From: a virus
IMG/VR virus record: IMGVR_UViG_3300023179_000044
Location: 39,879 to 103,878 of that record
Reading direction: 5' to 3' (one strand)
DNA: 64,000 nt
Shown here: in pieces, positions 16,701-48,501 of the stretch
Numbering within the stretch: position 1 is the first letter of the stretch
How the letters are laid out: every line of letters begins with the position of its first letter
Notes under the pieces: generated by a model
The model's database searches: none
The model's input: the letters and a program-made list of their open reading frames with translations, nothing else
Told to the model about the DNA's origin: nothing
Position numbers and translations under genes: made by a program

Positions 16701-19700
16701 AGGTCTAAGACTGTCATCAATGTCTATAGGAACACCGTTTACACTGAATTCTGAAATTGCTCTTTTAATTGGATCATAAAGGCCCCTACTTTTAGCAGTT
16801 TCAAATTGAGATTTTATTCTTCCATCTTTAAATAAATTTTCAATAAACTTTTCATCGATAGCAATAGTAACAGAAGCATTTTTTATAGCATTAGATAAAT
16901 CTTCAGCTGCATCCATCATTTTTCTTACAGATTTAGCATCTTCACTTTGTCCAGGAAAAGCTTTTTCATATTCAAGAAACATCTCATCAACGGCTTTTTT
17001 ATTTACATAATCTTGATAAGTTGTTATTGCATTATAAATAGCATCTTTTTTCCACATAAAGTCATTAGAGGTTCTTTCATCAATACTTTCAGCGGCAGCA
17101 AATAGTTTTTCTTTTAATTTTTTTCTATTTATATATAAAAATTTTTCTTTATTTTTTTCAAACCACTCTTTAGCAAAATCAAATACCGTCTGATCTGGCT
17201 CTTTATATCCTTCATTTACTTTTAATGCTTCATCTCTGTCTTTTAATCTTTTTAATATGCTATATGGGTCATAATAAAATGTTGGATCATCTGGATCACT
17301 AGCATCATCATATGCTTTTTTATCGGTAAAAATAATTGACTTATCCGACAGATATTTTTCTAGCTCGTCCTCTATGGAATAAGGAATGGCAGAAGCATTA
17401 ATTTCATTAGAAGTAAAGTCTTCTTTTTTAACTGGTTCTTTAGGACGTTTATATATTTTGTCATACTCTTCAATATCGGCATTAATTTTGTCTGATAATT
17501 CTTTTATAGTATTAGAATCAATTTTTTGATCTTCTCTATTAATGAGCTCATCTAAAAGATCCTCGGTAGGCTTGCTAAGTCTAGCATCCTTAAAATATTT
17601 GTATACATCATCACGTTCTTGTGGGCTAGCAAAGGTGACGTCAGTTACACCGTCCGACTTATACTGCTCTTCAGGCCACTCAGGTAAGAATTGCTTTTTT
17701 CCATACTTTACCCTGATTCTTAGGGTTCCGTCAGCATCTTCAAAAACTTCAGAAACTGTAAACTTGGCAGCTATAGGGAGAATAACTTCTTTTTCTCTGT
17801 CATAAACAGTTCCGTCTGGCTCGATAGGGGAGCCTGTAGCACCTTTTTCTGTTTTAATTTCAAAAATAACCGCTGAATTAGTATTTGAATCTTTATTATT
17901 TTGATCTAGAATTGCAAAGCCCTCGGCCACTTCAGGGTCTAGTGAGGTCGAAGTAAAAATATCACTAGATATAACTTCATCCCCTGGCTTTAGCTGCATC
18001 AACTGAGCACGTAATTCAGAGTCTCTTCGGGCTATAGTTCCTCTATAGAGTTTTGTTCCTTCTGGAATTTCTTCAGATTCAGTTAGCTTTTTTAAATTAG
18101 AAACTAATTTATTAACACTCTCGGAAGTATCGGAATCAAACTCTTCACCTTTTATAAAATCTTTTATTAATAAATACTGACCTTTTTGATAACCAGTGAT
18201 TGCTTCTTTTTCTTCATTTGTTCTATCTGGAGTTGGAAGTTGATCTATGCCACCCATATCAGGAGATTCGGGCTGGATCTGCCATATAGGATCGCCATCA
18301 GGAGGGCCAAAACCAGCTGGAATACGAGCAAATGATGTAAAGAATATAGGATTTAATACAGTATTTTCATCGTATCGACCACTCGACTCTGAGATTTTAA
18401 TTCTAATAGGAGTTGGTCGGCCACCGTTATCTCTTGCAGCAATAAGTTTTACTACGTCATCGCTATTATTTAAAGAATATTTTTCAGTATTTGGATTATA
18501 AAGTATTTCAATTGGCTCCCTAAATCCATTATCCTTAATATCTTTAGCGACTTCACTAGCTTTAGTTTTATTTTCCCCAGTGACAAGACCGAAATCAGCA
18601 TTATCTACTTTAGAAAGCACATCTCCTGGACGTACATATCCAACAGTGCCGAGGTTTCCTCCATTAAGAATTCCAAATGGAGCACGTTTTGTTCCTGGTT
18701 TTAAATCTATATTTAAGTTAGGATCTTCTTGCTTAGAGTACTCGGATGTTTTTTGTCTTACTGCATCTAAGTATGGCTCATTAAGTGTTACTTTTCTGTA
18801 TAAACCATATTTATGTAAAAGACTTTGTAAAGTCTCTAACCCCTCATCAGAGTTACCATATTCATTAATTAAATTAATAGCTTGAGTGTCATATATTTCA
18901 CCTCTAAGCGAAGCTTTTATATCACGAAGTTTTTGTCTACCCCAAATACTTAGATTTGATAATTTTTCTGAAGAATTTTCTTTTTTAACTGTTGTATTTG
19001 TATTTTTATATTTTAGTTTGATTGTTAAATTACTATTAGAATCCTTTTCTACACCGATAACTTCTAGCTGCGCTCCAATTGGTAAAACCACCTCTTTTTC
19101 TAAATCATACATATCCCCACTGGCTCCCACTACAGCACCAGTTGCACCATTTTCTGTTGTAATATCAAATACTATTCTTTTTGTTGGAGCAACTCTTTGA
19201 TCACCAAGAGCAGCGAAATCTATAGCAACACTTTTATCTCTTGTAGTAGAAGTAAATGTATTATCTGACGATACAATATCGCCAGGTTGTAGTTGGTTAA
19301 ATTGAGCGTACTTATCACTAGAAAATACGGCAAAAGTTCCTCTATAGAGTTTTGTTCCTTCTGGAAGCTCTTCTGAAGTAGTTACTTTTTTTAGATGCGG
19401 TATTGCTTTATCAAATTTTGCTTTTTGTTCTTCAGTAATAGTCCCATTAGTTGGATCTGCCATATATTTTGCTAAACGATAATATGAAGGACTTTGATAA
19501 AGTTCTATACTTTCATTTTCTTCATCAGTTCTAGGTGGTATTGGTAAATCAAATTCGTCATTAGCTGTTTCTGGAGTTTTCTCTTCTGATTCTGGATATT
19601 TATTTAAAATAAACTCGCGACGAGCTTTTAGTTTTTCTTTAAGTTCTTTATTATCAGCTGGGTCAGAAATAAACTTATCAACAAGTTCATCTATTTTTTC

Positions 19701-27112: not shown

Positions 27113-27468
27113 TTTTTCTCTTTCAATGTAACTAATGTTCTTCTAGGGTTCCAGCTTCTAAGTCTAGACCCACAGCCACAATTTGTGTCTCTTTTAAAGG
27201 CAAGCATTTTTCCACTTTTAGTAATAATCTTACTTTCACCTTTTAGATCTTTTTCAAAAGTAGTGTACTCTTCTTGAAAAATAACTTTTGCTCCATCAGG
27301 AGAATCAACTGCAACAATAATTATGTCTGAGTCAATGACAACTCTACACTTATCAACCATAAATGAACCTTCGGTAGGCGGGACTACCTTTACTTCATCT
27401 AGTGAAGCAACTGAATTAGGTGCTACAGCAACAAGAATTGCCGGAAACATATCAAAAACTATAATCAT
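27109..27468 (-). CDS. Hypothetical protein (CGCGSRL motif)
   Basis: ATGA-coupled to TerL and to the DUF1360 gene. Confidence 0.65.
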   Translation of the reverse strand: MIIVFDMFPAILVAVAPNSVASLDEVKVVPPTEGSFMVDKCRVVIDSDIIIVAVDSPDGAKVIFQEEYTTFEKDLKGESKIITKSGKMLAFKRDTNCGCGSRLRSWNPRRTLVTLKEKK

Positions 27469-28847
27469 CTAACTCTAAATCTTCCATTTCCATTAATTCT
27501 TCGTTCAGAAAAACTCTTGGCCCTTATTTTTCCACCAGTAAATCCGAGAGGTGGCTTAATTAAAAGAGCTGTAAGAGCATGGACAAGTGCATCAACTCGA
27601 TCAGGAGATTTTCCTTCCCCTGGAACCCACGAAATCATTTGCGATTCAAGATCACCAAGAAAACCTATATGGTGAACGCGACCTTGTTCGTAAGCAAGAG
27701 TAACTGGCTCTGCACGAAGGGCTTTTCCATGTTTAGAGTGGACTTCAAGTACTTTAACAGTTGGGTCAATTGTATTAATAGCGTTACGAACAAGTGCTCC
27801 ACCCTGGTTTACTTCAGCAATAACAGGGCAACCCCACTTGCGAGCCATCTTAACAACCTGATTAGCCCAAACATCAGGAGAGCCATGCACGCTGGCATCT
27901 TCAAGCACCCAAGCTTGGCGTTTGTAAAGATCATGTTCTGCTGTAGACGCTACAACTACAATTCCACACTCGTCACGGGGATTTTCTGCAACTGAAGGAT
28001 CAACTCCAATACAGCGAAGTGGGGTTGAAAGTGGGTAAGCACCCTCTCTTCCTGACTCAATCATTTCTTCAGTCCAAAGAGCACCTTCCATAGCTTCAAG
28101 CATTTCACCGTAAAGTTCCTGACGAGCAAGTGCAGTTCCCTGATAAACGCCAAGCATAGTATCAAGATAGCTAGAACTTAAGTTTCCAGCATTATCCATA
28201 GTCGAGCCACGAGTGATTACAACTTTTCCAGTTTTTGATTCTTCAATAAGTTTGTAAAGAAGCTGAGTACGCTTAGGAGTAGTTGTTACAAGAATCTTAG
28301 GGTTCTGTCCAAGACGAGTACCAACACGCAAGTTGTCAAAAGCAGTCATACCAGCTGCGTCTGGTGTCTGACGCCAAGCGGCTATCTCATCTCCCCAAGC
28401 GTGAGTGAACTGAGGACCACGGAGAGAGTCTGGTTCGTCAGCAGTAAATAGTGAAGCTACGTTTCCATTTGGCCAGGTAAGTCGTCTCTTAGATGGTTCG
28501 TAGAGTGGACGCTCGGATGGTGGAGTTATGTTCATAATTCCAGACTCACCTTCAACGATAACGTCACGAACGTCTCCAGCAGTACGAGCTACAAGGGCAA
28601 AACGACGTTGGCCAGTATTTGTATATCGAGCTTGTTCACGAACCCACTCGGAGGCAAGTCTTGTCTTACCAAACCCACGTCCTGCTAGAACTAGCCAGAC
28701 GTTCCAATCTCCTGGTGGAGTTTGTTGCTCAGGGCGACCCCAAACAGACCAATCCCACATTAATGCATCTGGATCCATTCCAGATAAAGCAAGAGCCTGC
28801 TCTTCCGGTGATAGAAGAGCAAGCTGCTCCATAATGCTTTTTCCCAT
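27465..28847 (-). CDS. terL: Terminase large subunit
   Basis: Walker A AGRGFGKT, LRGPQF..AWGDE Walker B, TTTP, nuclease IGVDP...D and SPDRVDA. Leaderless: TAAAAT 6 nt upstream. Confidence 0.95.
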   Translation of the reverse strand: MGKSIMEQLALLSPEEQALALSGMDPDALMWDWSVWGRPEQQTPPGDWNVWLVLAGRGFGKTRLASEWVREQARYTNTGQRRFALVARTAGDVRDVIVEGESGIMNITPPSERPLYEPSKRRLTWPNGNVASLFTADEPDSLRGPQFTHAWGDEIAAWRQTPDAAGMTAFDNLRVGTRLGQNPKILVTTTPKRTQLLYKLIEESKTGKVVITRGSTMDNAGNLSSSYLDTMLGVYQGTALARQELYGEMLEAMEGALWTEEMIESGREGAYPLSTPLRCIGVDPSVAENPRDECGIVVVASTAEHDLYKRQAWVLEDASVHGSPDVWANQVVKMARKWGCPVIAEVNQGGALVRNAINTIDPTVKVLEVHSKHGKALRAEPVTLAYEQGRVHHIGFLGDLESQMISWVPGEGKSPDRVDALVHALTALLIKPPLGFTGGKIRAKSFSERRINGNGRFRVR

Positions 28848-33811: not shown

Positions 33812-35176
33812 CTACTTTATATCTCCTTCAGAGGCTCCAGTAATTCCAATACTTGACTCTACCACAGGGAGCGCTTTCTTGACAAGTGCTTCATAGAACA
33901 TAGACAAAGGAAACTCATCATCCAGAACGCAGTCAGTCAATTCTCCAGTTGTCCCCTCGAGCAGAGGTAGGTCGCGCGCGAGCCACCGTGATGCAGGATG
34001 AGGAGTTAAAGTACTTGACACTAGTTCATAGGCTGCCAGCCAATGAGCCAGCTTTGGTCTGTCTATAGACTTCCAATAAAGCTCATTGATTTCGTCTGAC
34101 AATTGCAAGACTACAGTAGGCAATCTATTCCAATTGATAAACAAAGAAGTGTCAGTCCAGTCTAGAACTCTATGCTGATGCAAGTAGGCAAAGAGCAACT
34201 GGCCAGCAACTGAATCATAGTTACGCTTCCTAGTTCCTGACAGAGGAAACCTAAAAATTCTGTCAAAAATGATTGCATACTGCACTAGCTCAGCATGCTT
34301 TTTTGCGTCGACTACCGTGTAAGGGTTGGAGCTAAGTTTTACACATTCTCTGAATGCAGTAAGGTCACACCTAAGTTCTTCTATTCCATACAGAAAGAAA
34401 GGCATGCGTTGCTTAATCATGAATGGGTCGAAGGGCAAGTCACCTCTCATGTGGGCTCGATCATGAATCAAGTCCCACATCACATAGGTCTTCTCAGTCA
34501 GCTCTTGGTCAGCAAGTAACTCAGCCAGGCCAGCAGGAATATCCAGATTGGTTATCTTGGCGACCTCTCTAACAACTCTTCTAAACCTGGCAGCTTCTCT
34601 GTCTGCAAAGATTCCTCCCCAGGTAAACTTAGGCAGCTCACCAGCTCGCTTAACTATTGACACAGACTCAGGGAAAAGTACAGCAGAGTTGGTCAAGTAG
34701 CCAGATGTGAAGTCGACAAACCTTATTGGAACAAACCCAGGATTTGAGTACTCCATATCTTCTAGATTGAAAATAAACTCTGGCCAAATGACCTCAAACA
34801 AAACAGCCTCGACCAATCTGTCAGTCGAACCATTTTGTGTATACATTGGAAACACAACAACATGAGCCAGCCCATCTACTCTTGCTCGCTCTGGATGAAA
34901 AGCTTCTAATGAATTGTAAAAGTCTGGCATTGCAAACTTACCATCAGCCCACTTCTCGAAGTCATCAGCACATGCCAGCAGATACTCTGAGTCATGTGGA
35001 AGAAAGCCTGAAATCTTTCGAAGCGACATCGAAATAGTTGAAGCAGCAAGCGCACACAAGCCGTGTACTGCTGTATCAGGTATAGATCCATTTGTAACTT
35101 GATACCCTCTAAGTGTAGAGGCAGCAGATTTAATTGCAGACCATTCAGGGGATAAGGCTATGTCTTTTGCTAGCAT
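33812..35176 (-). CDS. DUF6421-like protein (actinobacterial), putative metalloenzyme
   Basis: VVFPMYTQNG, SAVLFPE, WGGIF.DREAARF, WDLIHDRAHMRGDLPFDPFMIKQRMP..EELRCDL. Family recognised from memory. Confidence 0.7.
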   Translation of the reverse strand: MLAKDIALSPEWSAIKSAASTLRGYQVTNGSIPDTAVHGLCALAASTISMSLRKISGFLPHDSEYLLACADDFEKWADGKFAMPDFYNSLEAFHPERARVDGLAHVVVFPMYTQNGSTDRLVEAVLFEVIWPEFIFNLEDMEYSNPGFVPIRFVDFTSGYLTNSAVLFPESVSIVKRAGELPKFTWGGIFADREAARFRRVVREVAKITNLDIPAGLAELLADQELTEKTYVMWDLIHDRAHMRGDLPFDPFMIKQRMPFFLYGIEELRCDLTAFRECVKLSSNPYTVVDAKKHAELVQYAIIFDRIFRFPLSGTRKRNYDSVAGQLLFAYLHQHRVLDWTDTSLFINWNRLPTVVLQLSDEINELYWKSIDRPKLAHWLAAYELVSSTLTPHPASRWLARDLPLLEGTTGELTDCVLDDEFPLSMFYEALVKKALPVVESSIGITGASEGDIK

Positions 35177-35815: not shown

Positions 35816-36214
35816 CTAATCTTCTTCGTCTTCGTCTTCGTCTTCGTCTTCGTCTTCACATTCACCCTCGCAACCCTCTACGCCACAAATGTAGCAAACT
35901 TCGTATTCAGTAGCACCTTGCTCAATAAGGCTCGTGTAGCCAGCGTTAGGGTCTTCGTGATTAGTCTCTACTGCCTGAATGAATTTTAGAGAGCAAGACT
36001 TCGCAAACCACTCTTTTAGTATGGAGAGCATTTCACTAGGGGTCTTCTCTTCGCAAGTGAAGAAACTATCTGGCTCTTCACCATAACCATAACCTTTTAC
36101 TTCGGCGACTTGCTCTTCGTCCATAAGAACATAGATTTTGTGGCAAGTGTCCCAAGTAATCGCCTTAGCGTCGTCTAGGGCGTATTCTACTTCGTCCCAG
36201 TCTATAACTGCCAT
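35816..36214 (-). CDS. Acidic hypothetical protein with Cys cluster and (ED)n tail
   Basis: Own promoter, GATAGG RBS and terminator; (TCTTCG)n at 35820-35857. Confidence 0.75.
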   Translation of the reverse strand: MAVIDWDEVEYALDDAKAITWDTCHKIYVLMDEEQVAEVKGYGYGEEPDSFFTCEEKTPSEMLSILKEWFAKSCSLKFIQAVETNHEDPNAGYTSLIEQGATEYEVCYICGVEGCEGECEDEDEDEDEDEED

Positions 36215-36407
36215 TTCGGTTTTCCTATCTGTTTAGTAACCCTTGTTGGCTACATACTTACTATAACCCTTACTGCCGACATTTGTTCCAACTTCTAATC
36301 AAAAATTAGTAGTTACTGGAAAAAATGAAAAATGTTATTTAGGCTTTTATTTTTTCTGGGCAAAAAATAACCCCCGATTTCTCGGGGGCTATCTGTGAAG
36401 TTTTTGA

Positions 36408-36761
36408 TTACAGGGTTTTTAGGTAATCGTAAAGGGTTTCCCTAATCGTAGCAAAATACGCTTCTGGATAGGCTTCCTTCATCATCTCTCGGTCAAAATG
36501 AGTGTTACGACCATTGACCTTCTTGACGACTACCACGCCACCGATAGTGCCTTCTACGAAGTCACCTAAGATTTCTCTTAGGGCTAGTTCAGCAAGTTCC
36601 TTCTGCTCTTTTGCTAGTGCTTCTGCTTTCTTAGCGTTCCTAAACTGGTTTAGGATTTCTTGGGCTTCTGGGGATAGTTCTAGTGATACTGACTTTGTTG
36701 CCTTTGTTGCCTTTTTTGCTGGGGCTGACTTTTCAGCCTTCTCTATTTTTTCTTTTGGCAT
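36408..36761 (-). CDS. Hypothetical protein, paralog of 41035-41376
   Basis: Near-identical C-terminus KKVNGRNTHFDRE.MKEAYPEAYFATIRETLYDYLKTL. Confidence 0.8.
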   Translation of the reverse strand: MPKEKIEKAEKSAPAKKATKATKSVSLELSPEAQEILNQFRNAKKAEALAKEQKELAELALREILGDFVEGTIGGVVVVKKVNGRNTHFDREMMKEAYPEAYFATIRETLYDYLKTL

Positions 36762-36935
36762 TTTTTTCCTTTGTTAGTTTTTCGGCTGGTTGCCGTGTTA
36801 CTAGGCTACGATACACCACCGACATAGAGCAACACTAATAGCAGTTTTTTTGTATCTACTGGAAAAAATGAAAAATGTTATTTAGAGTTGCTGGCTAAAA
36901 ACTTGGGGCTAAGTCTATTGACCTAGCCCCAGATT

Positions 36936-37115
36936 TTATCTAAAACTTTTTATTAGTTTGTAGATGGCAGTTAGGGGTCTGCTCTTACGCCTATGACGAC
37001 CACCTGACTTATCTAGCATTTTGTAAGACCAGTTTTGAGTTTTATACGAAACTTTGAAAGATAGTCCGTGTATTGCTCTTAGCAACTTGTATGCCAAATA
37101 GTATGCCAGTTTCAT
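36936..37115 (-). CDS. Small basic hypothetical protein
   Basis: ATGA-coupled to 37112-37366; start revised. Confidence 0.5.
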   Translation of the reverse strand: MKLAYYLAYKLLRAIHGLSFKVSYKTQNWSYKMLDKSGGRHRRKSRPLTAIYKLIKSFR

Positions 37116-37366
37116 TTGACCGATACCTTTTCCCACTGGTCTTTGTTATCAACTAACTCTTTTACATCTAGCGAGATTTGATACCACGCTTGGAATAGCA
37201 TTAGACCATAAACATCTAGGGTTAGACCAGTTGAGCCATTGTAGAGATAACCCTTTGGCAGTTCCAGCGTTGCTAGACCATCACTATAAAAAATAGTTAT
37301 GCCATTATCTTTTGCTAGGTTTATAGTCTTTACTATGTCCCCAGTTCCAAATGTTTTCTTAGCCAT
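37112..37366 (-). CDS. Hypothetical protein
   Basis: GATAGG RBS and promoter upstream. Confidence 0.65.
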   Translation of the reverse strand: MAKKTFGTGDIVKTINLAKDNGITIFYSDGLATLELPKGYLYNGSTGLTLDVYGLMLFQAWYQISLDVKELVDNKDQWEKVSVK

Positions 37367-37551
37367 TTGAGTTTGTTCCTATCTTTTAGGGGGTCTGCTG
37401 GTTGCTGACCCGTGTTATCACTCTACACCTAAATAGAAAAACACCACTACTTTTACTTAGTTTTTTAGAACTACTGGAAAAAATGAAAAATAGTTCTGGC
37501 ACTCATCTAATCAAAAAATACCCCGTCAAACTGACGGGGCATTTTTGCGAC

Positions 37552-37782
37552 CTAACTATTCAGGCTATTCATTAGGTCAAACATTATCCAGCAAGGCTCA
37601 CACTTGACGGACTTACTGGCTTGACTTGGACTAGGGGGATTAGATTTGAGATTACGACCACAAAGAGAGATTACAGGCTCTAAGGGCTTACCAGTTTCAT
37701 CTAAGGCTACAAGATGTCTAATGGACTTAGGGGGTCTAGTTCCAGTTGTATCTGGCGAGATGTCTGTTAGGGCTTGGCTCAC
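37552..37782 (-). CDS. Small Cys/His hypothetical protein
   Basis: H...LCG...CEPC pattern; GTGA-coupled. Confidence 0.55.
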   Translation of the reverse strand: MSQALTDISPDTTGTRPPKSIRHLVALDETGKPLEPVISLCGRNLKSNPPSPSQASKSVKCEPCWIMFDLMNSLNS

Positions 37783-38009
37783 TTGGCTTCACACTCCCAG
37801 CAAGCAGGGGAGTAATCACTATAAAGTGATACCCCGTGTTCGCAGTAATCGGTTTTACGCTTGCGTTCCAGAACTTCGGACATCTGGTCTATCATAGCCA
37901 GCAAGCGTTCAGGGTTGCCACCCAGAGAGAGTTGGCGTTGGGCTTCTTGGATAGCATAGCCCAGAGTTTCGGCAGAGTAGTTAGCGTAGGGGTTGCTAGG
38001 TGTAGTCAT
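37779..38009 (-). CDS. Small hypothetical protein with C-terminal CEH...CWEC
   Basis: Tiled in the unit; start revised to follow the 38011 stop. Confidence 0.6.
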   Translation of the reverse strand: MTTPSNPYANYSAETLGYAIQEAQRQLSLGGNPERLLAMIDQMSEVLERKRKTDYCEHGVSLYSDYSPACWECEAK

Positions 38010-38010
38010 C

Positions 38011-38154
38011 TTAGTTGTCGCTTTCATCTAGGGTCATTTCGACTTCGGTTAGGTGGCACTCTCGGCATAACTGGGAGTTGCTATCGGGGGCTAGGGTTGG
38101 GAACACTTTACCAGCGATAAAGTTTCCACAGTCGGCACAAATTGGGGTGGTCAT
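38011..38154 (-). CDS. 47-aa zinc-finger-like protein (not in the ORF track)
   Basis: MTTPICADCG...LCRECH with GATAGG RBS directly after a PafBC-type promoter. Confidence 0.6.
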   Translation of the reverse strand: MTTPICADCGNFIAGKVFPTLAPDSNSQLCRECHLTEVEMTLDESDN

Positions 38155-38306
38155 TGAGTTCCTATCTATCGGGGGGCTTGCTCGTTGCTTGCCCGTGTTG
38201 CCAGCCTAGCAAATACCACCGACATCATCTACACTTCTCACCAACTTTTCACCAAAGAGTTCCTGGTACTGGAAAAAATGAAAAATCTTATTTGGAAATT
38301 CTAAGT

Positions 38307-38655
38307 AAAAAAACTTCCCCTAGTATCCGCAGGGATTTCTAACTAGGGGAAGTTTCGGGCTATCGCTTGGAGATAGGATTTGGGCAAGGTATAACAAGCG
38401 ATAACCCTAGTGAGTTTGTAAGACCTGCCCTTACTCTTAGGGGGCGACCCTAAGCGACCTAATCAGTATGCCTACTGACTTGACTAACTCTCCCGACCTT
38501 GTAGATGTCTGCTCTGTGTATTTGTGGAAACCGACTAACCCGACCTTATAGATGTCTGCTCTGTGTTTCCTGATTCGGCGAACTCTTCCTAGTCAACTGA
38601 TTCGCCCTGACTCGCTAGTTTCCAACAATACTTACCTAGGAAGTAAGTGGACAAC
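38307..38655 (-). ncRNA. Putative ~350-nt structured non-coding RNA occupying its own unit
   Basis: Own box (38718), promoter TTGCGT-N16-TATTCT (38662-38689) and terminator; no credible ORF; at least 6 hairpins and a 28-nt direct repeat. Confidence 0.7.
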
Positions 38656-38803
38656 AAGATAAGAATACAGGTTTTTATGATTTACGCAACTTTTCACGAA
38701 AGTTTTTTGTATTCACTGGAAAAAATGAAAAATCTTATCTAAGCGATTTTTTGGCTAAAAAAATAAGTCCCCGATTTTCAGGGGACTTACTTTTTAGATT
38801 TGT

Positions 38804-39151
38804 CTAGGAGACACCGATTACTGACTTTATCCGTGTTATCTGGTTTTCGGTTAGGCTCTTGGTTTCGCCATTGTCGTCTGTTCCACCTGTAATAACTGCG
38901 TCTCCGACAATAATGTCTGTTTTGCCATAAGACATTTCCCAGAGTTTCGTTGCTAGAAAGTTGAAAGGCAGTCCAGTTAGTTTACCTTCCTCATTTATCC
39001 AGAGAGTTAGTCCAGCGAGTTCTTGGTCTAAATCTACTGCTTCTATCCAACCTGCTACTGCTTTACTTAGGAAATCATACTCCTTAGAGTTCTCTACCTG
39101 CTCGGTAGAAACTCCACCATCAGCCTTGATAACTAATACTTGCTTAGTCAT
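38804..39151 (-). CDS. DUF3846-like protein
   Basis: V.GWIEAV...W.NEEGKL.GLP.N..AT...IVGD.V.TG. Confidence 0.8.
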   Translation of the reverse strand: MTKQVLVIKADGGVSTEQVENSKEYDFLSKAVAGWIEAVDLDQELAGLTLWINEEGKLTGLPFNFLATKLWEMSYGKTDIIVGDAVITGGTDDNGETKSLTENQITRIKSVIGVS

Positions 39152-39359
39152 TTTGACCTGCCTATCTGTTTTGGTAGCCCGTGTTGACTACATAAGTAAT
39201 CTACTACTATCAACCGACATTTGTTCCAACTTCTAACTAAGTTTTGTATCTACTGGAAAAAATGAAAAATCTTATTTAGACATTTTGCTTCTAGTTCATC
39301 TGGGCAAAAAATAAACCCCTAGATTTTTGGTCTAGGGGTCTATTTATTTTTGAGTTGAT

Positions 39360-39473
39360 TTAGAGCCTGTCCCTGCTCTGCTTGCTCTGCTTGATGTCCC
39401 TGCTAATGCCACCGATAACTGATAACACTGATAGCACTAAATAAACACCAATAAAGGCGTATTGCCACCACAT
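39360..39473 (-). CDS. 37-aa membrane peptide
   Basis: TAATG-coupled; MWWQYAFIGVYLVLSVLSVIGG. Confidence 0.5.
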   Translation of the reverse strand: MWWQYAFIGVYLVLSVLSVIGGISRDIKQSKQSRDRL

Positions 39474-39715
39474 TAGTTCCACTCCCCTAATGCTCTTAGC
39501 ATTTCGTTAGGTGAAACTTTTAGGGCAACGCATAACTTAGCAAGTGTATCTGCTGGAAGTTGGCGTTGCTTGTGGAAGTATCTGCTAAGGCTGGACTTTT
39601 GTAGTCCTGTTGCGATAGCAAACTGATTTAGCGACTTATAGCCACGCTTAGAATACTGGGCGACAAACCACTCCCAAGTAATCTCACTCTGGCTCTTGAC
39701 TTTTGCTTTTGGCAT
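39473..39715 (-). CDS. XRE-family HTH regulator
   Basis: SLNQFAIATGLQKSSLSRYF..QR.L....L.KLC.AL.VSP. Confidence 0.8.
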   Translation of the reverse strand: MPKAKVKSQSEITWEWFVAQYSKRGYKSLNQFAIATGLQKSSLSRYFHKQRQLPADTLAKLCVALKVSPNEMLRALGEWN

Positions 39716-39913
39716 CTATCTCTCCTATTTTTGAGTTGGTCTATTTGACCTACTAACCACATTACACCAGTTTCCCGAAAAGCAACACCCGTGTTATGAG
39801 TTTTTGTATCTACTGGAAAAAATGAAAAATCTTATTTAGGATTTCAGTTGTTAGTTTGTTTGGGATAAAAATAACCCCCTAGATTTAGGGGGCTACTTTT
39901 TTAGGGGGGGGGT

Positions 39914-40228
39914 CTATCTGGACAATAGGGCGATAAATCGTCTAATGGTCTTTTTATCCGTGTTTTGTTCTAGGTATCTCAACACGCTATCAACTGGCAG
40001 ATTTCGGGCTATTCTGCCGACTAATACTGATGTGGTTTGGCTAATGTATGGTGTGTGGAAATACATAATCTCACTGGTTCGGGTGTTGTAGTCTAAGATT
40101 TTGGTTTTCCAGTGTGTTATCTGGTAGATGTCCCCTAACTGCTCGGCAGTTATGGTTTGGTTGTAGTTTGTAAAGGGGGCAAGGTTTTTGATTTGTTCCC
40201 CGATTTCGTGGTTTGGTAGGCGTTTCAT
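39914..40228 (-). CDS. Hypothetical protein
   Basis: ATGA-coupled; Y....SQTTS motif. Confidence 0.65.
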   Translation of the reverse strand: MKRLPNHEIGEQIKNLAPFTNYNQTITAEQLGDIYQITHWKTKILDYNTRTSEIMYFHTPYISQTTSVLVGRIARNLPVDSVLRYLEQNTDKKTIRRFIALLSR

Positions 40229-40398
40229 TGGGACATCTCCACTAATACAATAGCGTTACGAAGTTCGGCTATACGGGCTTTGACTAGGGTAATCTGTTTT
40301 TTCTCGGTTAGCGTTTCTAGTTCAGCAATTAGTACTTGCTCACGCTTTTTCAGATGGGCTAATGGGTTGATAACCATTGGCAGTTTATTTTCTGTCAT
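40225..40398 (-). CDS. Small coiled-coil hypothetical protein
   Basis: Start revised to lie downstream of the promoter at 40443-40464. Confidence 0.55.
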   Translation of the reverse strand: MTENKLPMVINPLAHLKKREQVLIAELETLTEKKQITLVKARIAELRNAIVLVEMSQ

Positions 40399-40623
40399 TT
40401 CAGTTTCTCTATCTCTAAGGGTAGCCGTGTTGCTACTCATCAACTATAACCCTAACAACTGACAAAAGTTCTGACTATCTGACAACTACTGGAAAAAATG
40501 AAAAATGTAATCATAGGTTTCTGGCTTCTGGGCTGGTTTGGATTTGATTTGGATAAAGAAACCCCCCCTGAAACCCAACTTGGACAGGGGGGGTTTTTGA
40601 GTGTGGCAGACACTCGGCTGGAT

Positions 40624-40836
40624 TTACTTGACTTTGACCCAACGGCAAGTCGTAGCGAGCAAGTTATCGTAATCGCCACTTGTGGCTTCTACTCTATACT
40701 GCTCAATAAGTTCTGGCGACACCTTAGCGTCTTTCATTGCTCGCATTACACGAGCAAGAATAGCAAAGGCATTTCCATCTTCACCGACTAACTTGACGGC
40801 TTTGACTTCTGGCAACTTTACAGACATCTCTAACAC
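40624..40836 (-). CDS. Hypothetical phage protein (LVGEDGNAFAIL...SGDYDNLL)
   Basis: Motif familiar from small phage/MGE proteins; own unit. Confidence 0.75.
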   Translation of the reverse strand: MLEMSVKLPEVKAVKLVGEDGNAFAILARVMRAMKDAKVSPELIEQYRVEATSGDYDNLLATTCRWVKVK

Positions 40837-41034
40837 CCCACTTCCCTATCTCTAAGGTAGCCCCGTGTGGCTACATAAGTAATCTACACTTTCCCACCGA
40901 CATACCCCAACACTTTTCACCAAGATTTAGTATCTACTGGAAAAAATGAAAAATGTGTATCTCTAATCTTGCGATTTTCTGCTAAAAAAATAAACTCCCC
41001 TAGATTTAGGGAAGTTTATTTTTTTTGGTCGGTG

Positions 41035-41376
41035 TTAGAGAGTTTTCAGGTAGTCGTATAGAGTTTCCCGAATAGTTGCGAAGTAGGCTTCTGGATAAGC
41101 CTCTTTCATTAGTTCTCGGTCAAAGTGGGTGTTTCTGCCATTGACTTTTTTCAGGACTACGACACCATTGATGGTGGCTTCTAGGCACTCTCCTAGCAAC
41201 TCACGCAGGGCGAGTTCTGCTTGCTCTTTGTCTGCTTTGGCTTGGGCTTCGGCTTTTTTGGCATTACGGAAACTGGTTAGCAACGCCATACCCTCTGGCG
41301 AGAGTTCTAGCGAGTTGGATTTCTTGGCAGTTTTTTTAGTGGTCTGCTTTACACTTTCAGTTTTAGTTTTTGGCAC
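41035..41376 (-). CDS. Hypothetical protein, paralog of 36408-36761
   Basis: Shared sequence; promoter TTGTAA-N17-TACACT upstream. Confidence 0.8.
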   Translation of the reverse strand: MPKTKTESVKQTTKKTAKKSNSLELSPEGMALLTSFRNAKKAEAQAKADKEQAELALRELLGECLEATINGVVVLKKVNGRNTHFDRELMKEAYPEAYFATIRETLYDYLKTL

Positions 41377-41493
41377 TTTTTATCCTTTGTTAGTTTCGGG
41401 GTTATTCCCGTGTTATCAGTGTAGCCTAATAATCAAGATTTTACAAATAAACTCCCTAAGATTTTTAGGGAGTTTATTTGACTACTTGATTTT

Positions 41494-41652
41494 TTAGTAA
41501 TCGCTCTCGTCTGTAAAGTCGGCAGACATAGCCAACTCGCCTCTGGCGTTCATCTCGCTTTGAGAAACAACCTCATCTTTATCGCAGATGTGCTCTTGGC
41601 TCGCAGGGTAAGAAACCCAACCCTCGCAGGTCTCGCAGTATTCGTGTATCAT
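41494..41652 (-). CDS. 52-aa acidic Cys/His protein (not in the ORF track)
   Basis: MIHEYCETCEGW...HIC; GATAGG RBS; terminator follows. Confidence 0.55.
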   Translation of the reverse strand: MIHEYCETCEGWVSYPASQEHICDKDEVVSQSEMNARGELAMSADFTDESDY

Positions 41653-41850
41653 TTTTCACCTCTTTCCTATCGTGTTCCCAAACTAGCACTAAAACGGATC
41701 TCCATAAAGAAAAAAACTAGCAAGTTGCTAATCACTGGAAAAAATGAAAAATGTTATTTAGGATTTCCTAGTTTAGTTCTGGGCTAGATAAAGCAAAGGG
41801 CTAGACTACAAAAGTAATCTAGCCCTAAGTTCGCTAGGAGATAGGGGAAA

Positions 41851-42334
41851 CTAGCGAAACCTTCTCGGTGTTCGTAATCTACGATAAACCGAGTATTGAC
41901 CTATTACATAACCAGCGACCAGACAGGCAACAGCAAGCGTGATAACTGCTATCAACTCAATAAGATTAGACATCACTTCCCCCTTTCGCTAATCGCCAAT
42001 ACCAAAGCACCAAAGATTAGGATTAGAGCCAGAGAGCCACCTATAACTAAACTTTCCGTGTTCATAAAATAAAACCCTGTTATTAGAGAGTAGCACCCTA
42101 ACGCCATTAGTAAATACTTCATTACTTATCTTTTCCTATCTTTACAGCGTCTAAGGCAAACCAAATAGATACCACTACACCAAGAACCAGACCATTAGAC
42201 CAAACTTCATCTATGGTGTGAGCCTGACCAGCACCATTGGCAACCAGTAAAGCGTAAGTGATAACCCAAGCACCAGCAACTAGGGGAGTGATTAGCAACC
42301 CTGCCAATGCTCTAAAAAATACATACTTATTCAT
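41851..42334 (-). CDS. Three coupled small membrane-protein genes (42122-42334, 41973-42122, 41851-41973)
   Basis: Hydrophobic ORFs with stop/start overlaps. Confidence 0.6.
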
Positions 42335-42526
42335 TTCAGTTCCTATCTATCAAGTAGCCTGTGTTGGCTACATAAATAATTTATACCCAAATAGCAAAAA
42401 ACTCAACAAGCAACAAAAAAATAACTATCTACTGGAAAAAATGAAAAATGTAATCTAGGGTTCGGTGTTTTCTGGGCTGGACAAAAAAATACCCTGCCAC
42501 TTGGACAGGGTATTTTTAGTTTTTAT

Positions 42527-42919
42527 TTAGTAGCAATAAAGGCAGGTTGAGCCATAACAGGCGTGTTCATCAGCGTATCGTTCAGGGCAGATTTCTCTGG
42601 CTTGTTCGTGTATTTGGATAGATAACTTTTCTAGCAACCTTTTTACCTGCCACATAGATTTTAGGATTTCATCTATCGTGTTTTGGGTCTGCTCTGGCAT
42701 CTCAACTAACAGGGCAGGTTCGCCATTGGTATCAAGCGTTAGGGGCAAGTTCAGCAACTCATCTCTATACTTCTCGACCTTGCGAATTATGGTGTCTATT
42801 TCGCTGGTGTCTTGGCTGGTGTCGTAAAGAATAGCACCATAGGGGCTTTCTAGGATTTCCACCTGCTCTGCTAGTTTTTCTAGGGCGATAGCGTTGCTCT
42901 CTGCTAGGTTCTCTTTCAC
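42527..42919 (-). CDS. Hypothetical protein with C-terminal Cys cluster
   Basis: GATAGG RBS; terminator follows. Confidence 0.6.
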   Translation of the reverse strand: MKENLAESNAIALEKLAEQVEILESPYGAILYDTSQDTSEIDTIIRKVEKYRDELLNLPLTLDTNGEPALLVEMPEQTQNTIDEILKSMWQVKRLLEKLSIQIHEQAREICPERYADEHACYGSTCLYCY

Positions 42920-42927
42920 TGGGTTTC

Positions 42928-43128
42928 CTATCTCTCGGTGTTCTCGGTGTTCTTGCTTTCAGCAAGGATTTCTTGGGTTCTAGCCAAAATAACTTTTATC
43001 TGCTCTGGCGTTAGGTGAGCAAAAATAAAGCCATAAGCGTATGGATAAACTACTTCATCGCTTTTACCTGCTAACCTAAGGTTTTCTATGACCTGAATAA
43101 TCGGGTCAATGGTGGTCTGGTCTGCCAT
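42928..43128 (-). CDS. Hypothetical protein
   Basis: GATAGG RBS before the revised ATG at 43128. Confidence 0.6.
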   Translation of the reverse strand: MADQTTIDPIIQVIENLRLAGKSDEVVYPYAYGFIFAHLTPEQIKVILARTQEILAESKNTENTER

Positions 43129-43320
43129 AATCGGTGTCCTATCTGTCGGGGGCTTTTCCATAAAACAACTATAACCCTAACCACTGACGAAGCTTCACTA
43201 CTTTTTATCAAAAAAAAATAGATACTGGAAAAAATGAAAAATGTTATTACTGCTTTTTTTCTTGGACAAAAAATAAACCCCCCTAAGTTCAGGGGGGAGT
43301 ATCTTGATAACTAGGCTAGA

Positions 43321-43734
43321 TTAGTCATCTAAGGCTATTTCAGCGACCTCTAAGGTAAAGGTTGCCCAATACTCATCATGGCTAGACCTAACTACCTCTA
43401 ACACGCTGTAATCATCATTAGAGTAAAAGCGAAGTGTGAAGTCGCTATCTAGGCTAAGGTCGCTAATCAAGTTTTCAGGGTTGCTAATTTTATAGCCAGA
43501 GCGTCTATCCCAATTTAGGTTTTTAGCGTTGATTAGAATTGGAGTTTTCAGTTCATAAGAATTGGCAGTCATCCACTTTTCCAGCAAGTCAAACTTGATG
43601 TTATCTAAGTCATCTTGCCAGCAACCATAGCAGTCTTCACTAGGTTTTGATGTTTTAGTTTCTTCATCATAATCCTCACAAGAGCAAGTGTCGCTAAGTG
43701 TATAGCGAAGCGTTAGTTCAGTTTTAGTTCCCAT
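43321..43734 (-). CDS. Acidic hypothetical protein (CSC...CYGCW...SSHD)
   Basis: Own unit with AGGAG RBS. Confidence 0.7.
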   Translation of the reverse strand: MGTKTELTLRYTLSDTCSCEDYDEETKTSKPSEDCYGCWQDDLDNIKFDLLEKWMTANSYELKTPILINAKNLNWDRRSGYKISNPENLISDLSLDSDFTLRFYSNDDYSVLEVVRSSHDEYWATFTLEVAEIALDD

Positions 43735-43979
43735 AATAATCTCCTAAGTAAGTTTTGGCAGTTGCCATAAATAGAGGCTAGCAAACTTTATAAAAATAAC
43801 TCGCAACTTGGATAACTTTTTGATAACTTTTTTTCTTTATTTATTATCTAGTGGAAAAAATGAAAAATAGTTAGTAAGGTTTTTGTTCCCTTTTAGCAAC
43901 TTATCAAAATAAGATGTATTCTGCTCTAAGTCCCCCCTAAATAATCTAATAATGGAAAAAATGAAAAATAATCTAGCAA

Positions 43980-44490
43980 CTTTTATAGATTTTTACAGGT
44001 TTTTACAGGTTTTTACAGGTTTTTACAGATTTTTACAAATTTTTTATTATTTTTTACTTTTATTTTTTGATTTTTACAGATTTTTACAGATTTTTACAGA
44101 TTTTAGCGTTTTTTGGCTTTTTAGGCGTTTTAGGGCTTTTAGCGTTTTTCAGGCGTTTCGGGGTTTTAGGCGTTTTAGGGCTTCTATGGGCTTTTAGAGC
44201 GTTTCCAGCCAGAAACGGCTGTTAGACGGGTTTGGCTATCCGTCAAGGCTTCTAGGCTCTATCGGGTCTAAGGTCTATCCGTCAAGTGTAGGCAGGGGGC
44301 TTATAGGCGAGCCGTCATTTAGCGAGCCGTTGAGTTCAGGGGGCTTATAGGCGAGCCGTCAAACTGCTAGCCGTTGGCTTTTAGGGCTTATAGGCGAGCC
44401 GTTGATTTGCTAGCCGTCATTTAGGCAAGCCGTCAAATGCTAGCCGTTGGCTCGCCTAGCCGTGTTGATTAGGCGAGCCGTTAGGCTTGC
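43980..44490 (+). repeat. Non-coding tandem-repeat block, candidate origin or bent-DNA site
   Basis: ~10-bp TTTTTACAG(G/A) units 43981-44101; TTTTAG(G/C) units 44101-44197; GGCGAGCCGT / GCTAGCCGT / GGGCTTATAGGCGAGCCGT units 44295-44482. Confidence 0.85.
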
Positions 44491-44494
44491 TGGT

Positions 44495-44842
44495 TTAGGC
44501 TTGCCGTTCAGTTTCTATACTAAACTCCGTGTATTCCACGCCGTCAATGGTATAAACACCCGTATCAGCATCAACCGACACGCTTGGAACATTTATCCAC
44601 TCTGTTCCCGTTAGGCTACCCGTTTCTATCCCGAAAGATAACTCGCCATTATAGTTTCCAAGCCTGACGGCGAACTCGTAAAAGATTTGAGCAGCCAAGT
44701 AAGACGGGTCGCCAATACGCCCCGTGTTCTCTAAAACATTTCTTACTGCTGTTAGGTTGTCCGTGCCTGACCAATGCCCGTAAAAAACTACGGGTTCAGG
44801 AAAACGCTGGCTGGTGATTTCTATAAATGCTCTGTCGCCCAT
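44495..44842 (-). CDS. Hypothetical phage protein (MGDRA...Y.HW.G)
   Basis: 115-aa ORF with a familiar N-terminal motif. Confidence 0.7.
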   Translation of the reverse strand: MGDRAFIEITSQRFPEPVVFYGHWSGTDNLTAVRNVLENTGRIGDPSYLAAQIFYEFAVRLGNYNGELSFGIETGSLTGTEWINVPSVSVDADTGVYTIDGVEYTEFSIETERQA

Positions 44843-44844
44843 TT

Positions 44845-45309
44845 TTATTTGTTCTCGCTTTCTTTGATTTTGTTGAGTTGGTTTATCGTATCACGCAAGA
44901 TGTTCATAGCCCTACCATTTGTAATAGGTGCGTGTTCATTTTCTAGTGTTGCTAAATGGTTCTCCAAATCAGCGATAACTGATTTTAGTGTTGGAACTAA
45001 TAGCGTTGGTGTTAGTGTTTCCATTTCTGATTTCTCGCTTTCTGTTTCAGGGTTGATAAATGTTTCCAAGTGGCATAACTCTACCATTTTGGAAACAGAT
45101 AGGATTTTTGAGCCACCAAAAGTAATCCCTTTTGGCAACTCTATTTCACTATCCCAGTAGCCGAAGTTTGCTAACTCTATTGCCTGTAAGCAAGGCTCTC
45201 TTAGGTCTATTGGAAGTGGTGGATAGTGGTTGCCTAGTAAGTGCCAAGTTATTCTTTTATCTAGGGCTATCTCGGTGTTGCTAACTATGTTCTCGCTTAG
45301 TTTGCTCAT
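44845..45309 (-). CDS. Hypothetical protein (WHL..NHYPP motif)
   Basis: GAAAGG RBS; promoter TTGATT-N17-TAGACT. Confidence 0.7.
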   Translation of the reverse strand: MSKLSENIVSNTEIALDKRITWHLLGNHYPPLPIDLREPCLQAIELANFGYWDSEIELPKGITFGGSKILSVSKMVELCHLETFINPETESEKSEMETLTPTLLVPTLKSVIADLENHLATLENEHAPITNGRAMNILRDTINQLNKIKESENK

Positions 45310-45481
45310 TTGTTTCCTTTCAGTTAGGTAATGAAAGTCTAGTGATTTTTTTTACCCAAATCAAGTTATTTTCGGTGTGTTATCAAAAAGTTAGTTTTAC
45401 TGGAAAAAATGAAAAATCTAGTAAAAAGTTTCCAACTAAAAAAATCCCCCTATGCGAAACAATAAACATAGGGGGAAGTTT

Positions 45482-46193
45482 TTATTTTCTATCTTTACAG
45501 CCTACACAAACCCAGATAGCGTGTTCATAGTTAGGGTCAAGGTCAAGTCCAGAAGTATCTACAAAGTAAAGTGGTTCGCTGGCTAATCCAGTTCCACACA
45601 TTTCACAGGTGAAAACATTTTCGCCTTTACAGCAACTACATTTATCAAGTTTTTTGTTCGTGTCCATTAGTCCCACCCCATACAACCACAATAATAATCG
45701 TCAGTTGGCTCGTCAGGCGTGTATCTAAAAAACGCTAAGTCAGGGCTACTTGGTTTTGGATTATGAGCCCTATTAGTTTTTTCACTTCCACAGGTAGCCA
45801 TACGACCTGCTAACTGCTCTGGTGTTGGTTTTGCTGGTGTTAGTTCATTTTTATTTTCCATTTAGTTTCTCCTTAGTCTTGCTCAAACTCTACTAAATAA
45901 ACTTCGGGAATAACAGCGTCTAATCCTGTTGAGAACATACTTTCTAAACTATCGTATCCACCTAGTTCATCATAAAGAAACTCTTGGAAATCATCTGTGT
46001 ATTTGGTATCTACAACTAGCCAAGATAAATCGTTATACTCGTTTTCCCTGCTCATTTGTAGCCATTGTTCAGTTCCACGCCATAAGAACCAAACAAATCT
46101 ATCGGTGTAATCACCCTGAACCTTGACTAACTTTACATCAGGTATCCAGCCATTTAGTTCGTCAGCGTAGAAATCGTGTTTTACTTTTTCCAT
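45482..46193 (-). CDS. Three small genes: 45873-46193 (acidic), 45667-45861 (YYCGC), 45482-45667 (CxxC-rich)
   Basis: Tiled ORFs with RBS or TAATG coupling; starts revised. Confidence 0.6.
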
Positions 46194-46365
46194 TGGTGTT
46201 CCTTTCCAAGTTTGTTGATACAGATACACTAACACAGCCCACAGACATTTTTCTATTTTTATTTATTATCTAGTGGAAAAAATGAAAAATGTATTTCAGG
46301 TCTGGCTCATAAAAAGTTTGAGCAGTTTAGACACTTGCTCAGGTGTTTTCCTTTTCAGGAGTGGT

Positions 46366-46881
46366 CTAGCAGATAGAGAACCCACCAGAGTTCTCTAAAA
46401 ACTCTGCGAACTCTTTTAGGTCGTCAAGTTCCAGCGAGTAGTTAGTGTCCCAACTCTCTTTCTTGCCCTCGCCATTACAGCCATTACACCAGCCAGTTTC
46501 TCTGCCTAACATAATCGCCTGTTCAGGTGATAACTTGTGTTCTGGCATTTGGTTCTGGACACCTACTTCATCACTTCTAATACCAGTTCCAGCACATAGG
46601 TCGCAGTTTTCTAGTGGCAGACTAGCCAGATAAGCGTTTCTTTGCTCTATGTATTCACTAGCCTTGCCAGTTGCTAAATCGTCTTTGATACGCTTGGCGA
46701 GTTCCTTAGCACCTGTTTCGTCTAGTCCATCGCCATCGTTGTAATGCCCAGAAACATTAGCAACTAGGTCATTATAGTTATCCACGCAGAACTCCCAGAG
46801 TGGTCGCCAGCCCCAGACACTTCGCCTGAAATAAGCCCCTACTTCATTAGCAGGGTTTTTACCAAATACATCCATACCCAT
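46366..46881 (-). CDS. Hypothetical protein with DnaJ-type CxxCxGxG zinc motifs
   Basis: YFRRSVWGWRPLW; CDLCAGTG and CNGCNGEG; promoter TTGCGT-N18-TAGATT. Confidence 0.75.
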   Translation of the reverse strand: MGMDVFGKNPANEVGAYFRRSVWGWRPLWEFCVDNYNDLVANVSGHYNDGDGLDETGAKELAKRIKDDLATGKASEYIEQRNAYLASLPLENCDLCAGTGIRSDEVGVQNQMPEHKLSPEQAIMLGRETGWCNGCNGEGKKESWDTNYSLELDDLKEFAEFLENSGGFSIC

Positions 46882-47084
46882 TTTTCGTTTTCCTTTCGCT
46901 AGGGTTATTTATTTGATAACTGAAATCTACCAAACAAACTTCCAAAAACGCAACTTATTTCATAACTTTTTGATAAACATTTTTCTTGCTTTGGTTATTA
47001 GTGGAAAAAATGAAAAATCTTTTCTTGACATTTTTGGGGAAAAAGTTAGTTTTCCCTTATGGGAAAAACTAACGATTAGAAATA

Positions 47085-47282
47085 CTATTCAGTTTTAGTT
47101 TCAGGTTCATCATCACCAAAATCCACCAAGTCATAGGCGAGTATCTGGCGACCTACCTTGTCGTAGATGACTTCATAAATCTCTCCGTCATCTCCATTTG
47201 CTTCGGCTTCCGTCTTTGCTTCCAAGAGCAAGGCAAGCAGTAGGTTTGCTTCTGCTTCTGTTAGGCGTTTAGGGTCTTTCAT
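47085..47282 (-). CDS. Small acidic hypothetical protein
   Basis: ORF ending just before a terminator. Confidence 0.5.
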   Translation of the reverse strand: MKDPKRLTEAEANLLLALLLEAKTEAEANGDDGEIYEVIYDKVGRQILAYDLVDFGDDEPETKTE

Positions 47283-47350
47283 CTGCTATCCGTTAGTTGT
47301 TGGTCTGGTCTAGTCTGGTCTAAGGTCTATCCGTCAGGTCTGGGCAACTA

Positions 47351-47641
47351 CTATGCGAGCCGACTTGGTTGGCTGTCCGTCAAAAGTTGCTCGGCTGTAT
47401 CTGGCACTCTAAATCCCATACGCAAGCCGACTATCACTACAAGTTCAGCCGTGTCCATACCAAGACACTTGGCGATTTCATTTAGAACTTCACTACTCGC
47501 TTCTTTTCTACCCTGTTCTAGTTCCCAAAGGTAGTTATGTGAAATCCGTGCCTGTGATTTGTTTATGGTTTCTCGCAGAGTTAGTTGGTTCTTGTATCGG
47601 TGTTCGGAGATAACTTCTCCTAATGCTTGCCTGAATAACAT
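47351..47641 (-). CDS. ClgR-like XRE-family transcription regulator
   Basis: LFRQALGEVI...R....LTLRE....A.IS..YL.ELEQGRKEASSEVL..IA..L resembles actinobacterial ClgR. Confidence 0.75.
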   Translation of the reverse strand: MLFRQALGEVISEHRYKNQLTLRETINKSQARISHNYLWELEQGRKEASSEVLNEIAKCLGMDTAELVVIVGLRMGFRVPDTAEQLLTDSQPSRLA

Positions 47642-47822
47642 TTGTTAGTCCAAGTCCTTTCCGTGTTTTGAGTTGTATTCGTCAATAGCCTTACGAACTT
47701 CCACAGCGTAAGCAGGGTGTCGTGCCATAGACATCAGTAGTTTTTTCTTTTCCGTGCTGGTTAGAAAAATCCAGCGAAAGCGATACCAGAGTGTAATGAG
47801 CGTGTCTTTCATAATCTTTTCC

Positions 47823-48305
47823 TTACCTAATGAATACTACTGCTACTAATCCAAAATACACCAGATAGATAAATGGGGCAAGTCTGCCACCAATAATCTC
47901 TCGCCTACTACGCCACATAACGAGATACACACTTCCTATTACAAATGCCATAGATACAAGTGGCAATACTAGCCAGACCCAAGCGAACTTCCAAGATAGA
48001 GATAGACCCATAACTACAAATAACTTTACATCACCCATACCAATACTTTCCCATTTAGCGTGTATGTAAGTGAACACAGCAAGTAATACCACTCCAAAAA
48101 TAAGTGGCATAACTAATCCCCATAGCCACTCACCAGATACAACTGCGTAAGTAATGGCAGAGCCTAGCCAGAGCCAGATAGTAGGTAGCGTGTATTTGTT
48201 AGGAACTCTATTTTCCATAAAGTCCCAAATCAGTATTGGGATAGCAACTACGCATAAGTAGATAGCAGGAAGCGAAGCGATTATTTGTTGTTGTTGTGTA
48301 TTCAT
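47823..48305 (-). CDS. Prepilin peptidase-like (A24) membrane aspartic protease; leaderless start at 48305
   Basis: WDF...RVPN and GMGDVKL catalytic Asp motifs; multiple TM helices. Confidence 0.8.
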   Translation of the reverse strand: MNTQQQQIIASLPAIYLCVVAIPILIWDFMENRVPNKYTLPTIWLWLGSAITYAVVSGEWLWGLVMPLIFGVVLLAVFTYIHAKWESIGMGDVKLFVVMGLSLSWKFAWVWLVLPLVSMAFVIGSVYLVMWRSRREIIGGRLAPFIYLVYFGLVAVVFIR

Positions 48306-48501
48306 AAATCCCACTATACAAGTTAGGTGCGACATTTTACAAATCTTTTTTGGCGTGTTTTATTATTTAGTGGAAAAAATGAAAAATCTTATGAGCCAAA
48401 AAAACTAAAAAAAAACGCTGGTAGATAAACGAGAAAATCTACCAGCATTTTTTCACTTAGAAAGGAGTGATTATTTATTTATGGGTGTTGCTTGGTTCTG
48501 G

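Follow-up and report, generated by a model that had tools for sequence, protein, structure and literature searches.

An array of about 21 co-oriented short units of small genes, located at positions 35720-56319 (minus strand) of a 64-kb stretch of phage DNA, was found to carry nine promoter-like sites of the form TGTCGG-N10-TANNNT, referred to hereafter as class A sites. The stretch, which we call the window, forms the final 64 kb of the 103,878-bp IMG/VR record IMGVR_UViG_3300023179_000044, a record that is 61% complete. As judged from the sequence, the motif is real, functional-looking, conserved in a clade of related phages, and equal to the promoter design of PafBC, the actinobacterial regulator whose WYL-domain subunits, PafB and PafC, act as a heterodimer. 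We give about even chances to the reading that the nine sites are genuine promoters of the PafBC (RecA-NDp) type, read by the PafBC of the host. The broader proposal, that a clade of large freshwater actinophages uses host PafBC activated by single-stranded DNA (ssDNA), through sigma adaptation, as a switch for 8-16 small-gene promoters per genome, is put forward with confidence a shade below even.

The in vivo PafBC consensus reads tGTCgg(N10)tA(N3)T, with its 5′ part spanning −28 to −23; within it, GTC is under strict conservation throughout actinobacteria and is recognized by residues R46 and R50 of PafB, and the promoters are devoid of a −35 element (PMC8635444). PafBC-dependent (RecA-NDp) promoters act by “sigma adaptation” (PMC8635444, PMC11804915). 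In the phage sites, both the hexamer, with its invariant GTC, and the spacing of 10 nucleotides (nt) agree with this description. The identity with the actinobacterial PafBC (RecA-NDp) motif, which the original prediction had proposed, was thereby upheld, sequence and spacing being equal to the published consensus (PMC8635444).

The motif is strongly enriched where promoters would be expected. Exact TGTCGG-N10-TANNNT occurs six times in the whole window, compared with 0.24 expected, and none of 100 shuffles reached six. In the intergenic DNA of the array (6.0 kb), the transcribed strand contains five exact sites, where dinucleotide shuffles predict 0.008, and 10 GTC-anchored sites, where they predict 1.1. 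Neither count was reached in any of 2000 shuffles; the test against shuffled intergenic DNA that had been suggested as a check was thus passed. No TGTCGG or TGTCRG site was found on the opposite strand or in the array coding DNA, where looser GTC-anchored matches numbered one and two, respectively. When all 4096 hexamers were compared at a distance of 10 nt upstream of TANNNT, TGTCGG ranked first, and high ranks at gaps of 9 and 11 arose only from shifted readings of the gap-10 sites. The count of nine array promoters given in the original prediction also stood: five sites are exact and four carry one or two mismatches, with the GTC and the 10-nt gap retained in 9/9. The sixth exact match in the window, at 17329-17350, lies inside an open reading frame (ORF) of 3612 amino acids and was rejected as a promoter, probably being a chance occurrence.

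The class A promoters of this phage appear to have no usable −35 element, the corresponding region being weak or mis-spaced. It matches at 2-4 of 6 positions, and two of the four sites that reach 4/6 do so with a 20-nt spacer. A scan with the sigma-70 consensus detected one of the nine sites, 48313-48334 (TTGTAA-N18-TATAGT). Most other units had been said to use TTG-type −35 elements 16-18 nt from the −10, a statement that, on our reading of the sequence, held for some units (those at 56319, 47017, 45416, 38732, and 42448) and is less clear for others. As a separate observation, canonical sigma-70-type promoter matches between 35500 and 51000 are below chance, with 15 found and 28 expected.

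All nine sites lie on the minus strand. Among the exact ones, 36260-36281 (TGTCGG-N10-TATAGT) heads the gene at 35816-36214, and 36803-36824 (TGTCGG-TGG...-TAGCCT) heads 36408-36761, which encodes a RecE-like C-terminal fragment (phrog_1956). The site at 38203-38224 (TGTCGG-TGG...-TAGGCT) heads three small genes (38154-37552), 39198-39219 (TGTCGG-N10-TAGATT) heads a DUF3846 gene (38804-39151), and 40881-40902 (TGTCGG-TGG...-TAGATT) heads a phrog_1933 gene (40624-40836). The four variants comprise 40443-40464 (TGTCAG-N10-TATAGT), upstream of genes 40398-39914; 43168-43189 (CGTCAG-TGG...-TATAGT), upstream of genes 43161-42527; 46226-46247 (TGTCTG-TGG...-TAGTGT), with a likely start codon at 46193; and 48313-48334 (TGTCGC-N10-TATAGT), which heads a Peptidase_A24-like gene. 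In this last unit an in-frame ATG (48305-48303) stands 7 nt past the −10 and reads as a leaderless start of the Peptidase_A24-like gene; leaderless messenger RNAs (mRNAs) occur in actinobacteria. A doubtful tenth site, 39760-39781 (TTTCGG-N10-TAATGT, minus strand), is without the G of the GTC and heads a gene for an XRE-type helix-turn-helix (HTH) protein (39473-39715). The class A promoters head small genes, most of them without an assigned function, and the suggestion that these serve counter-defence found no backing, as nothing in their DUF3846, phrog_1933, Peptidase_A24-like, and RecE-like content marks them so.

Conservation of the motif was followed in IMG/VR, which holds 455 loci with a related terminase, of which 80 (80-92% identical) were retained. 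Related lake phages that carry the motif have terminases 80-89% identical to that of the window, and their site numbers range from 8 to 16, compared with 0-2 in the reversed control. TGTCRG-N10-TANNNT is present 8-13 times in whole related records, compared with 0-1 times in a reversed control, and widening of the hexamer to TGTCRK in one relative, G016, gave 21 sites versus three in the control. The relatives' sites are clustered on the transcribed strand of small-gene arrays, and TGTCGG or TGTCAG is the top gap-10 hexamer in each of four related lake phages. The orthologous unit of 36260-36281, whose protein starts with MAVIDW, retains TGTC.G in three phages (including G016 and a second relative, G015), although the spacer has diverged completely. 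Because TGTC.G is kept in related phages despite the diverged spacer, the motif is more than a set of duplicated cassettes.

By its gene content, the record derives from an uncultured freshwater actinophage, an assignment based on its terminase relatives, a WhiB-family gene, DUF6421 similarity, and the leaderless start described above. The large terminase (27465-28847, minus strand) is nearest to that of Actinomycetia phage DSL-LC01 (73.5% identity), and the next matches are to Microbacterium, Gordonia, and Arthrobacter phages. The WhiB-family gene is encoded at G000:C1:7177-7374, in the same record and outside the window. For the DUF6421 gene (33812-35176), Rhodoluna-like genomes of freshwater Micrococcales have counterparts with 66-70% identity. 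The actinobacterial setting claimed in the original prediction was therefore confirmed by the terminase relatives and the WhiB gene, even though the GC content of the window (about 40%) had first suggested otherwise. The phage DNA is present in lake and freshwater metagenomes of several studies, and the phage appears to be large and is probably lytic. Its host is taken to be a freshwater actinobacterium and not Mycobacterium, M. smegmatis being therefore only a surrogate; the candidates are the Rhodoluna-like and the Nanopelagicales lineages, gene similarity pointing to the former. Transfer RNA genes, sought for host matching, were not found. No GenBank phage matched the array in a megablast search.

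The candidate hosts encode the proposed reader. Two adjacent WYL genes were found in 5/5 Rhodoluna-like genomes, and PafC was found in 5/5 Nanopelagicales genomes, which answers in the affirmative the question of whether the predicted host has pafBC. In one Rhodoluna-like genome (G005), one gene of the pair encodes a protein with WYL+WCX domains and the other a protein with HTH_PafC+WYL+WCX domains; tatC and a helY-like helicase gene are adjacent, a neighbourhood that we take to be the mycobacterial pafB-pafC-tatA-tatC-helY order. The PafB of this genome aligned to Mycobacterium smegmatis PafB in the RNA polymerase complex (7p5x_AY) with E = 1e-28, and retains equivalents of the GTC-reading arginines R46 and R50. 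Sites of the same type are present in DNA of candidate host lineages as well. One TGTCNN-N10-TANNNT lies within 450 nt upstream of recA in 16/16 genomes of the order that contains Nanopelagicales, with the hexamer and the −10 conserved and the spacer variable; these sites are similar to those of the phage both in their variants (TGTCGG, TGTCAG, TGTCGT) and in an (A/T)GG extension. A recA-site-like sequence in the phage record, the conserved TGTCAGACCCATCATGTAAAGT (TGTCAGACCC...) at G000:C1:12757-12778, was rejected as a promoter: it lies inside a helicase coding sequence, and its conservation is explained by protein-coding constraint. In the Rhodoluna-like genomes, conserved PafBC-type sites, often leaderless, precede nrdR, parA, dnaX, genes for two RNase T-like exonucleases, and a PHP protein gene.

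From these observations we infer PafBC as the reader, ssDNA as the trigger, and a particular timing of the class A units. Host RNA polymerase carrying the housekeeping sigma factor would read the TANNNT −10, while the host PafB-PafC heterodimer, once bound to ssDNA, would sit between sigma region 4 and the DNA and read the GTC triplet at −27 to −25, replacing the −35 contact. Class A units would then fire when ssDNA accumulates in the infected cell, through phage replication, recombination, or damage to host or phage DNA, and would form a delayed or damage-responsive class beside the ordinary units with TTG-type −35 elements. Across the clade, phage replication or DNA injury itself would time the class A genes, and the many phage sites might draw PafBC away from host repair genes. 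To our knowledge, sigma adaptation by PafBC has been described only for the DNA-damage response of the host, and no phage promoter of this kind was found in the literature on PafBC and phage promoters within the limited library available.

Several findings weigh against the reading of the class A sites as promoters operated by host PafBC. No GTC-type site was found upstream of recA in the five Rhodoluna-like genomes, which are the best host lead by gene similarity; their recA (L227-L231) instead has a LexA-type box (TTCGTAATTTTGTTCGAA) overlapping a TAGGCT −10, together with a conserved leader stem-loop. The PafBC-type sites of these genomes precede a mixed set of genes that also includes those for metK, a BirA-like ligase, and an M50 protease. 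The GC content of the phage (40%) is far below that of Rhodoluna-like genomes, so that the host assignment is tentative. In the relatives, 26 of the 48 sites have a TTGACA-like −35 matching at least 4/6 positions, mostly with a 17-18-nt spacer, compared with a background of 19%. Such promoters should work without PafBC; possibly they operate in a dual mode, or TGTCRG serves a different purpose in them. Three orthologous sites in G015, the nearest array relative (G015:C1:39842, 42887, and 46673), retain TGTC.G but carry, after the usual gap of 10 nt, TTGACT or TTTGAT rather than TANNNT. Finally, the motif is confined to the closer relatives: no TGTCRG-N10-TANNNT was found in the 129 kb of the more distant DSL-LC01, and the more distant Microbacterium phage Big4 showed no enrichment, with one site in 192 kb.

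This restriction to a single phage clade would be expected if the element were read by a factor of the phage itself, which would recognize TGTCRG at −26 and recruit or re-tune the host RNA polymerase, the likeness to PafBC being convergence or mimicry; MotA/AsiA of phage T4 would be a parallel. We regard this as unlikely. The sequence, the invariant GTC, and the 10-nt spacing all equal those of the host system, and an element of this type lies upstream of recA in 16/16 genomes of the order that contains Nanopelagicales. Two XRE-type HTH (HTH_3) proteins are encoded in the array, and either of these, or the WhiB-family protein, would be an eligible if rather improbable reader; the WhiB family is known to bind sigma region 4, while XRE-type proteins usually bind palindromes, and the −26 element is non-palindromic. 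Each unit does possess, upstream of its promoter and in helical phase with it, a box specific to the phage, as might suit a phage-encoded factor. The more specific version raised in the original prediction, a phage-encoded PafBC-like factor, was not borne out: the WYL domain (PF13280) was found neither in the 104-kb record, itself 61% complete, nor in the records of four relatives, of which two are complete, and tblastn with host PafB or PafC gave no match in the phage DNA examined.

The −35 elements of the relatives bear on a different explanation, to which we assign a somewhat lower probability still, namely that these are ordinary SigA promoters in which TGTCRG is a spacer operator for a repressor or modulator of phage or host, much as at the asymmetric repressor sites of mycobacteriophage L5. 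A good −35, set at a 17-18-nt spacer, accompanies about half of the sites in the relatives, and with a consensus −35 the resulting TTGACA-aa-TGTCAG resembles an inverted repeat. With TGTCGG, however, the left half is TTGCGG, TTGCCA, or TTGGGG and shows no mirror. A palindromic operator (TTGACA-N2-TGTCAA) was accordingly rejected, because the left half neither mirrors TGTCGG nor co-varies with the right. In diverged phages the element stands at a distance from the −10 that is constant to the nucleotide, as would suit recognition within the polymerase complex, and the class A promoters of this phage appear to be without a usable −35. That the hexamer is a functionless relic of duplicated promoter cassettes is very improbable. 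Clearly paralogous units do exist (36232-36298 and 39170-39236, family D15, are 78% identical), but TGTCRG is kept while flanks and spacer diverge, both within the phage and across relatives of 44-51% GC, and it is the top gap-10 hexamer in each of four of them.

The units of the array share a common order, consisting of an intrinsic terminator, a near-invariant box TTTTTCATTTTTTCCAGT, a promoter, a leader, a GATAGGA ribosome-binding site, and one to four small genes. Terminator-like sites number 44 in the array, compared with 14 expected. The box TTTTTCATTTTTTCCAGT precedes every unit irrespective of promoter class and is common only to the relative G015, which has 24 copies of TTTTTCATTTTT; a search of IMG/VR for the exact box returned single chance matches and no array elsewhere. 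Counted from the first nucleotide of the box, the −26 element begins 41-42, 49-52, or 61 nt downstream, which puts the two roughly in helical phase; the site at 38203-38224, at 61 nt from its upstream box, is one helical turn beyond the other sites. Leaders often begin with a 5′ hairpin containing AACACGG. An ATGTAG sequence with a hairpin (e.g., GTAGCCAACACGGGCTAC) follows directly after the −10 at 36232-36262, 39173-39200, 40856-40880, and 42353-42380 (minus strand); this start is also present in the relatives G015 and G016 and probably forms a stem-loop that stabilises the mRNA at its 5′ end. At 38340-38700 (minus strand), the box at 38732 and a TTGCGT-N16-TATTCT promoter are followed by about 350 nt without an ORF, in which two copies of a repeat of about 25 nt (CACAGAGCAGACATCTA.AAGGTCGG) precede a terminator at the end; this unit may specify a non-coding RNA. 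In a gap between array units, at 43950-44440, tandem repeats of 9-10 nt are densely packed, first of the TTTTTACAGG and then of the TTTTAGGCG type; repeats about 44 nt long (GGCTTATAGGCGAGCCGT...) come next, and the whole could be iterons or a replication origin.

If the class A sites are indeed operated by host PafBC, they would give phages a novel means of gene timing, via an ssDNA sensor of the host and without a factor of their own, and would connect infection by phages with the damage response of lake actinobacteria, which are abundant. The sites would then also offer natural promoter variants, with and without a −35, for the study of the −26 element. The proposal is directly testable, because an in vitro system of PafBC, RNA polymerase, and ssDNA exists (PMC11804915).

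The closest known counterparts are the PafBC promoters themselves, with which the phage sites share the tGTCgg element with its invariant GTC, the 10-nt distance to tANNNT, and the non-palindromic character of the element. The units of this phage, moreover, have a weak or absent −35, and the candidate actinobacterial hosts encode PafBC. The phage sites, as putative PafBC promoters, differ in that they head a phage small-gene array (9 of about 21 units) rather than host repair genes, carry a good −35 in many related phages, and have a phage-specific box 41-61 nt upstream of the element. The middle promoters of phage T4 (MotA box plus AsiA, “sigma appropriation”) are similar in that the −10 is kept and the −35 is replaced by a factor-read element at sigma region 4. 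MotA and AsiA, however, are phage-encoded and remodel sigma region 4, whereas the element here matches the site of a host regulator and no factor encoded by the phage came to light. Phage genes and prophage induction coupled to the SOS system (LexA/RecA) likewise tie phage expression to a host signal of damaged DNA or ssDNA; the coupling there is by relief of repression, whereas an activator is proposed here to act at the promoter, at many units at once. The general layout of the region has its nearest parallel in DSL-LC01 (OQ999401.1), the two sharing a plan in which an AAA ATPase gene and a CobT-like gene are followed by dozens of small genes and then by the terminase. A search of IMG/VR with the CobT-like protein gave no relatives. 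At 22-44 kb of DSL-LC01, about 35 near-identical extended −10 promoters ATTCTAAAGATGTTATAAT are each followed by a CGACGAAAGGACA leader. The two phages are thus alike in that each small-gene unit has a terminator, a repeated promoter, and a conserved leader, and differ in the promoter itself, which in DSL-LC01 is a uniform extended −10 type (TGTTATAAT) instead of TGTCRG-N10-TANNNT.

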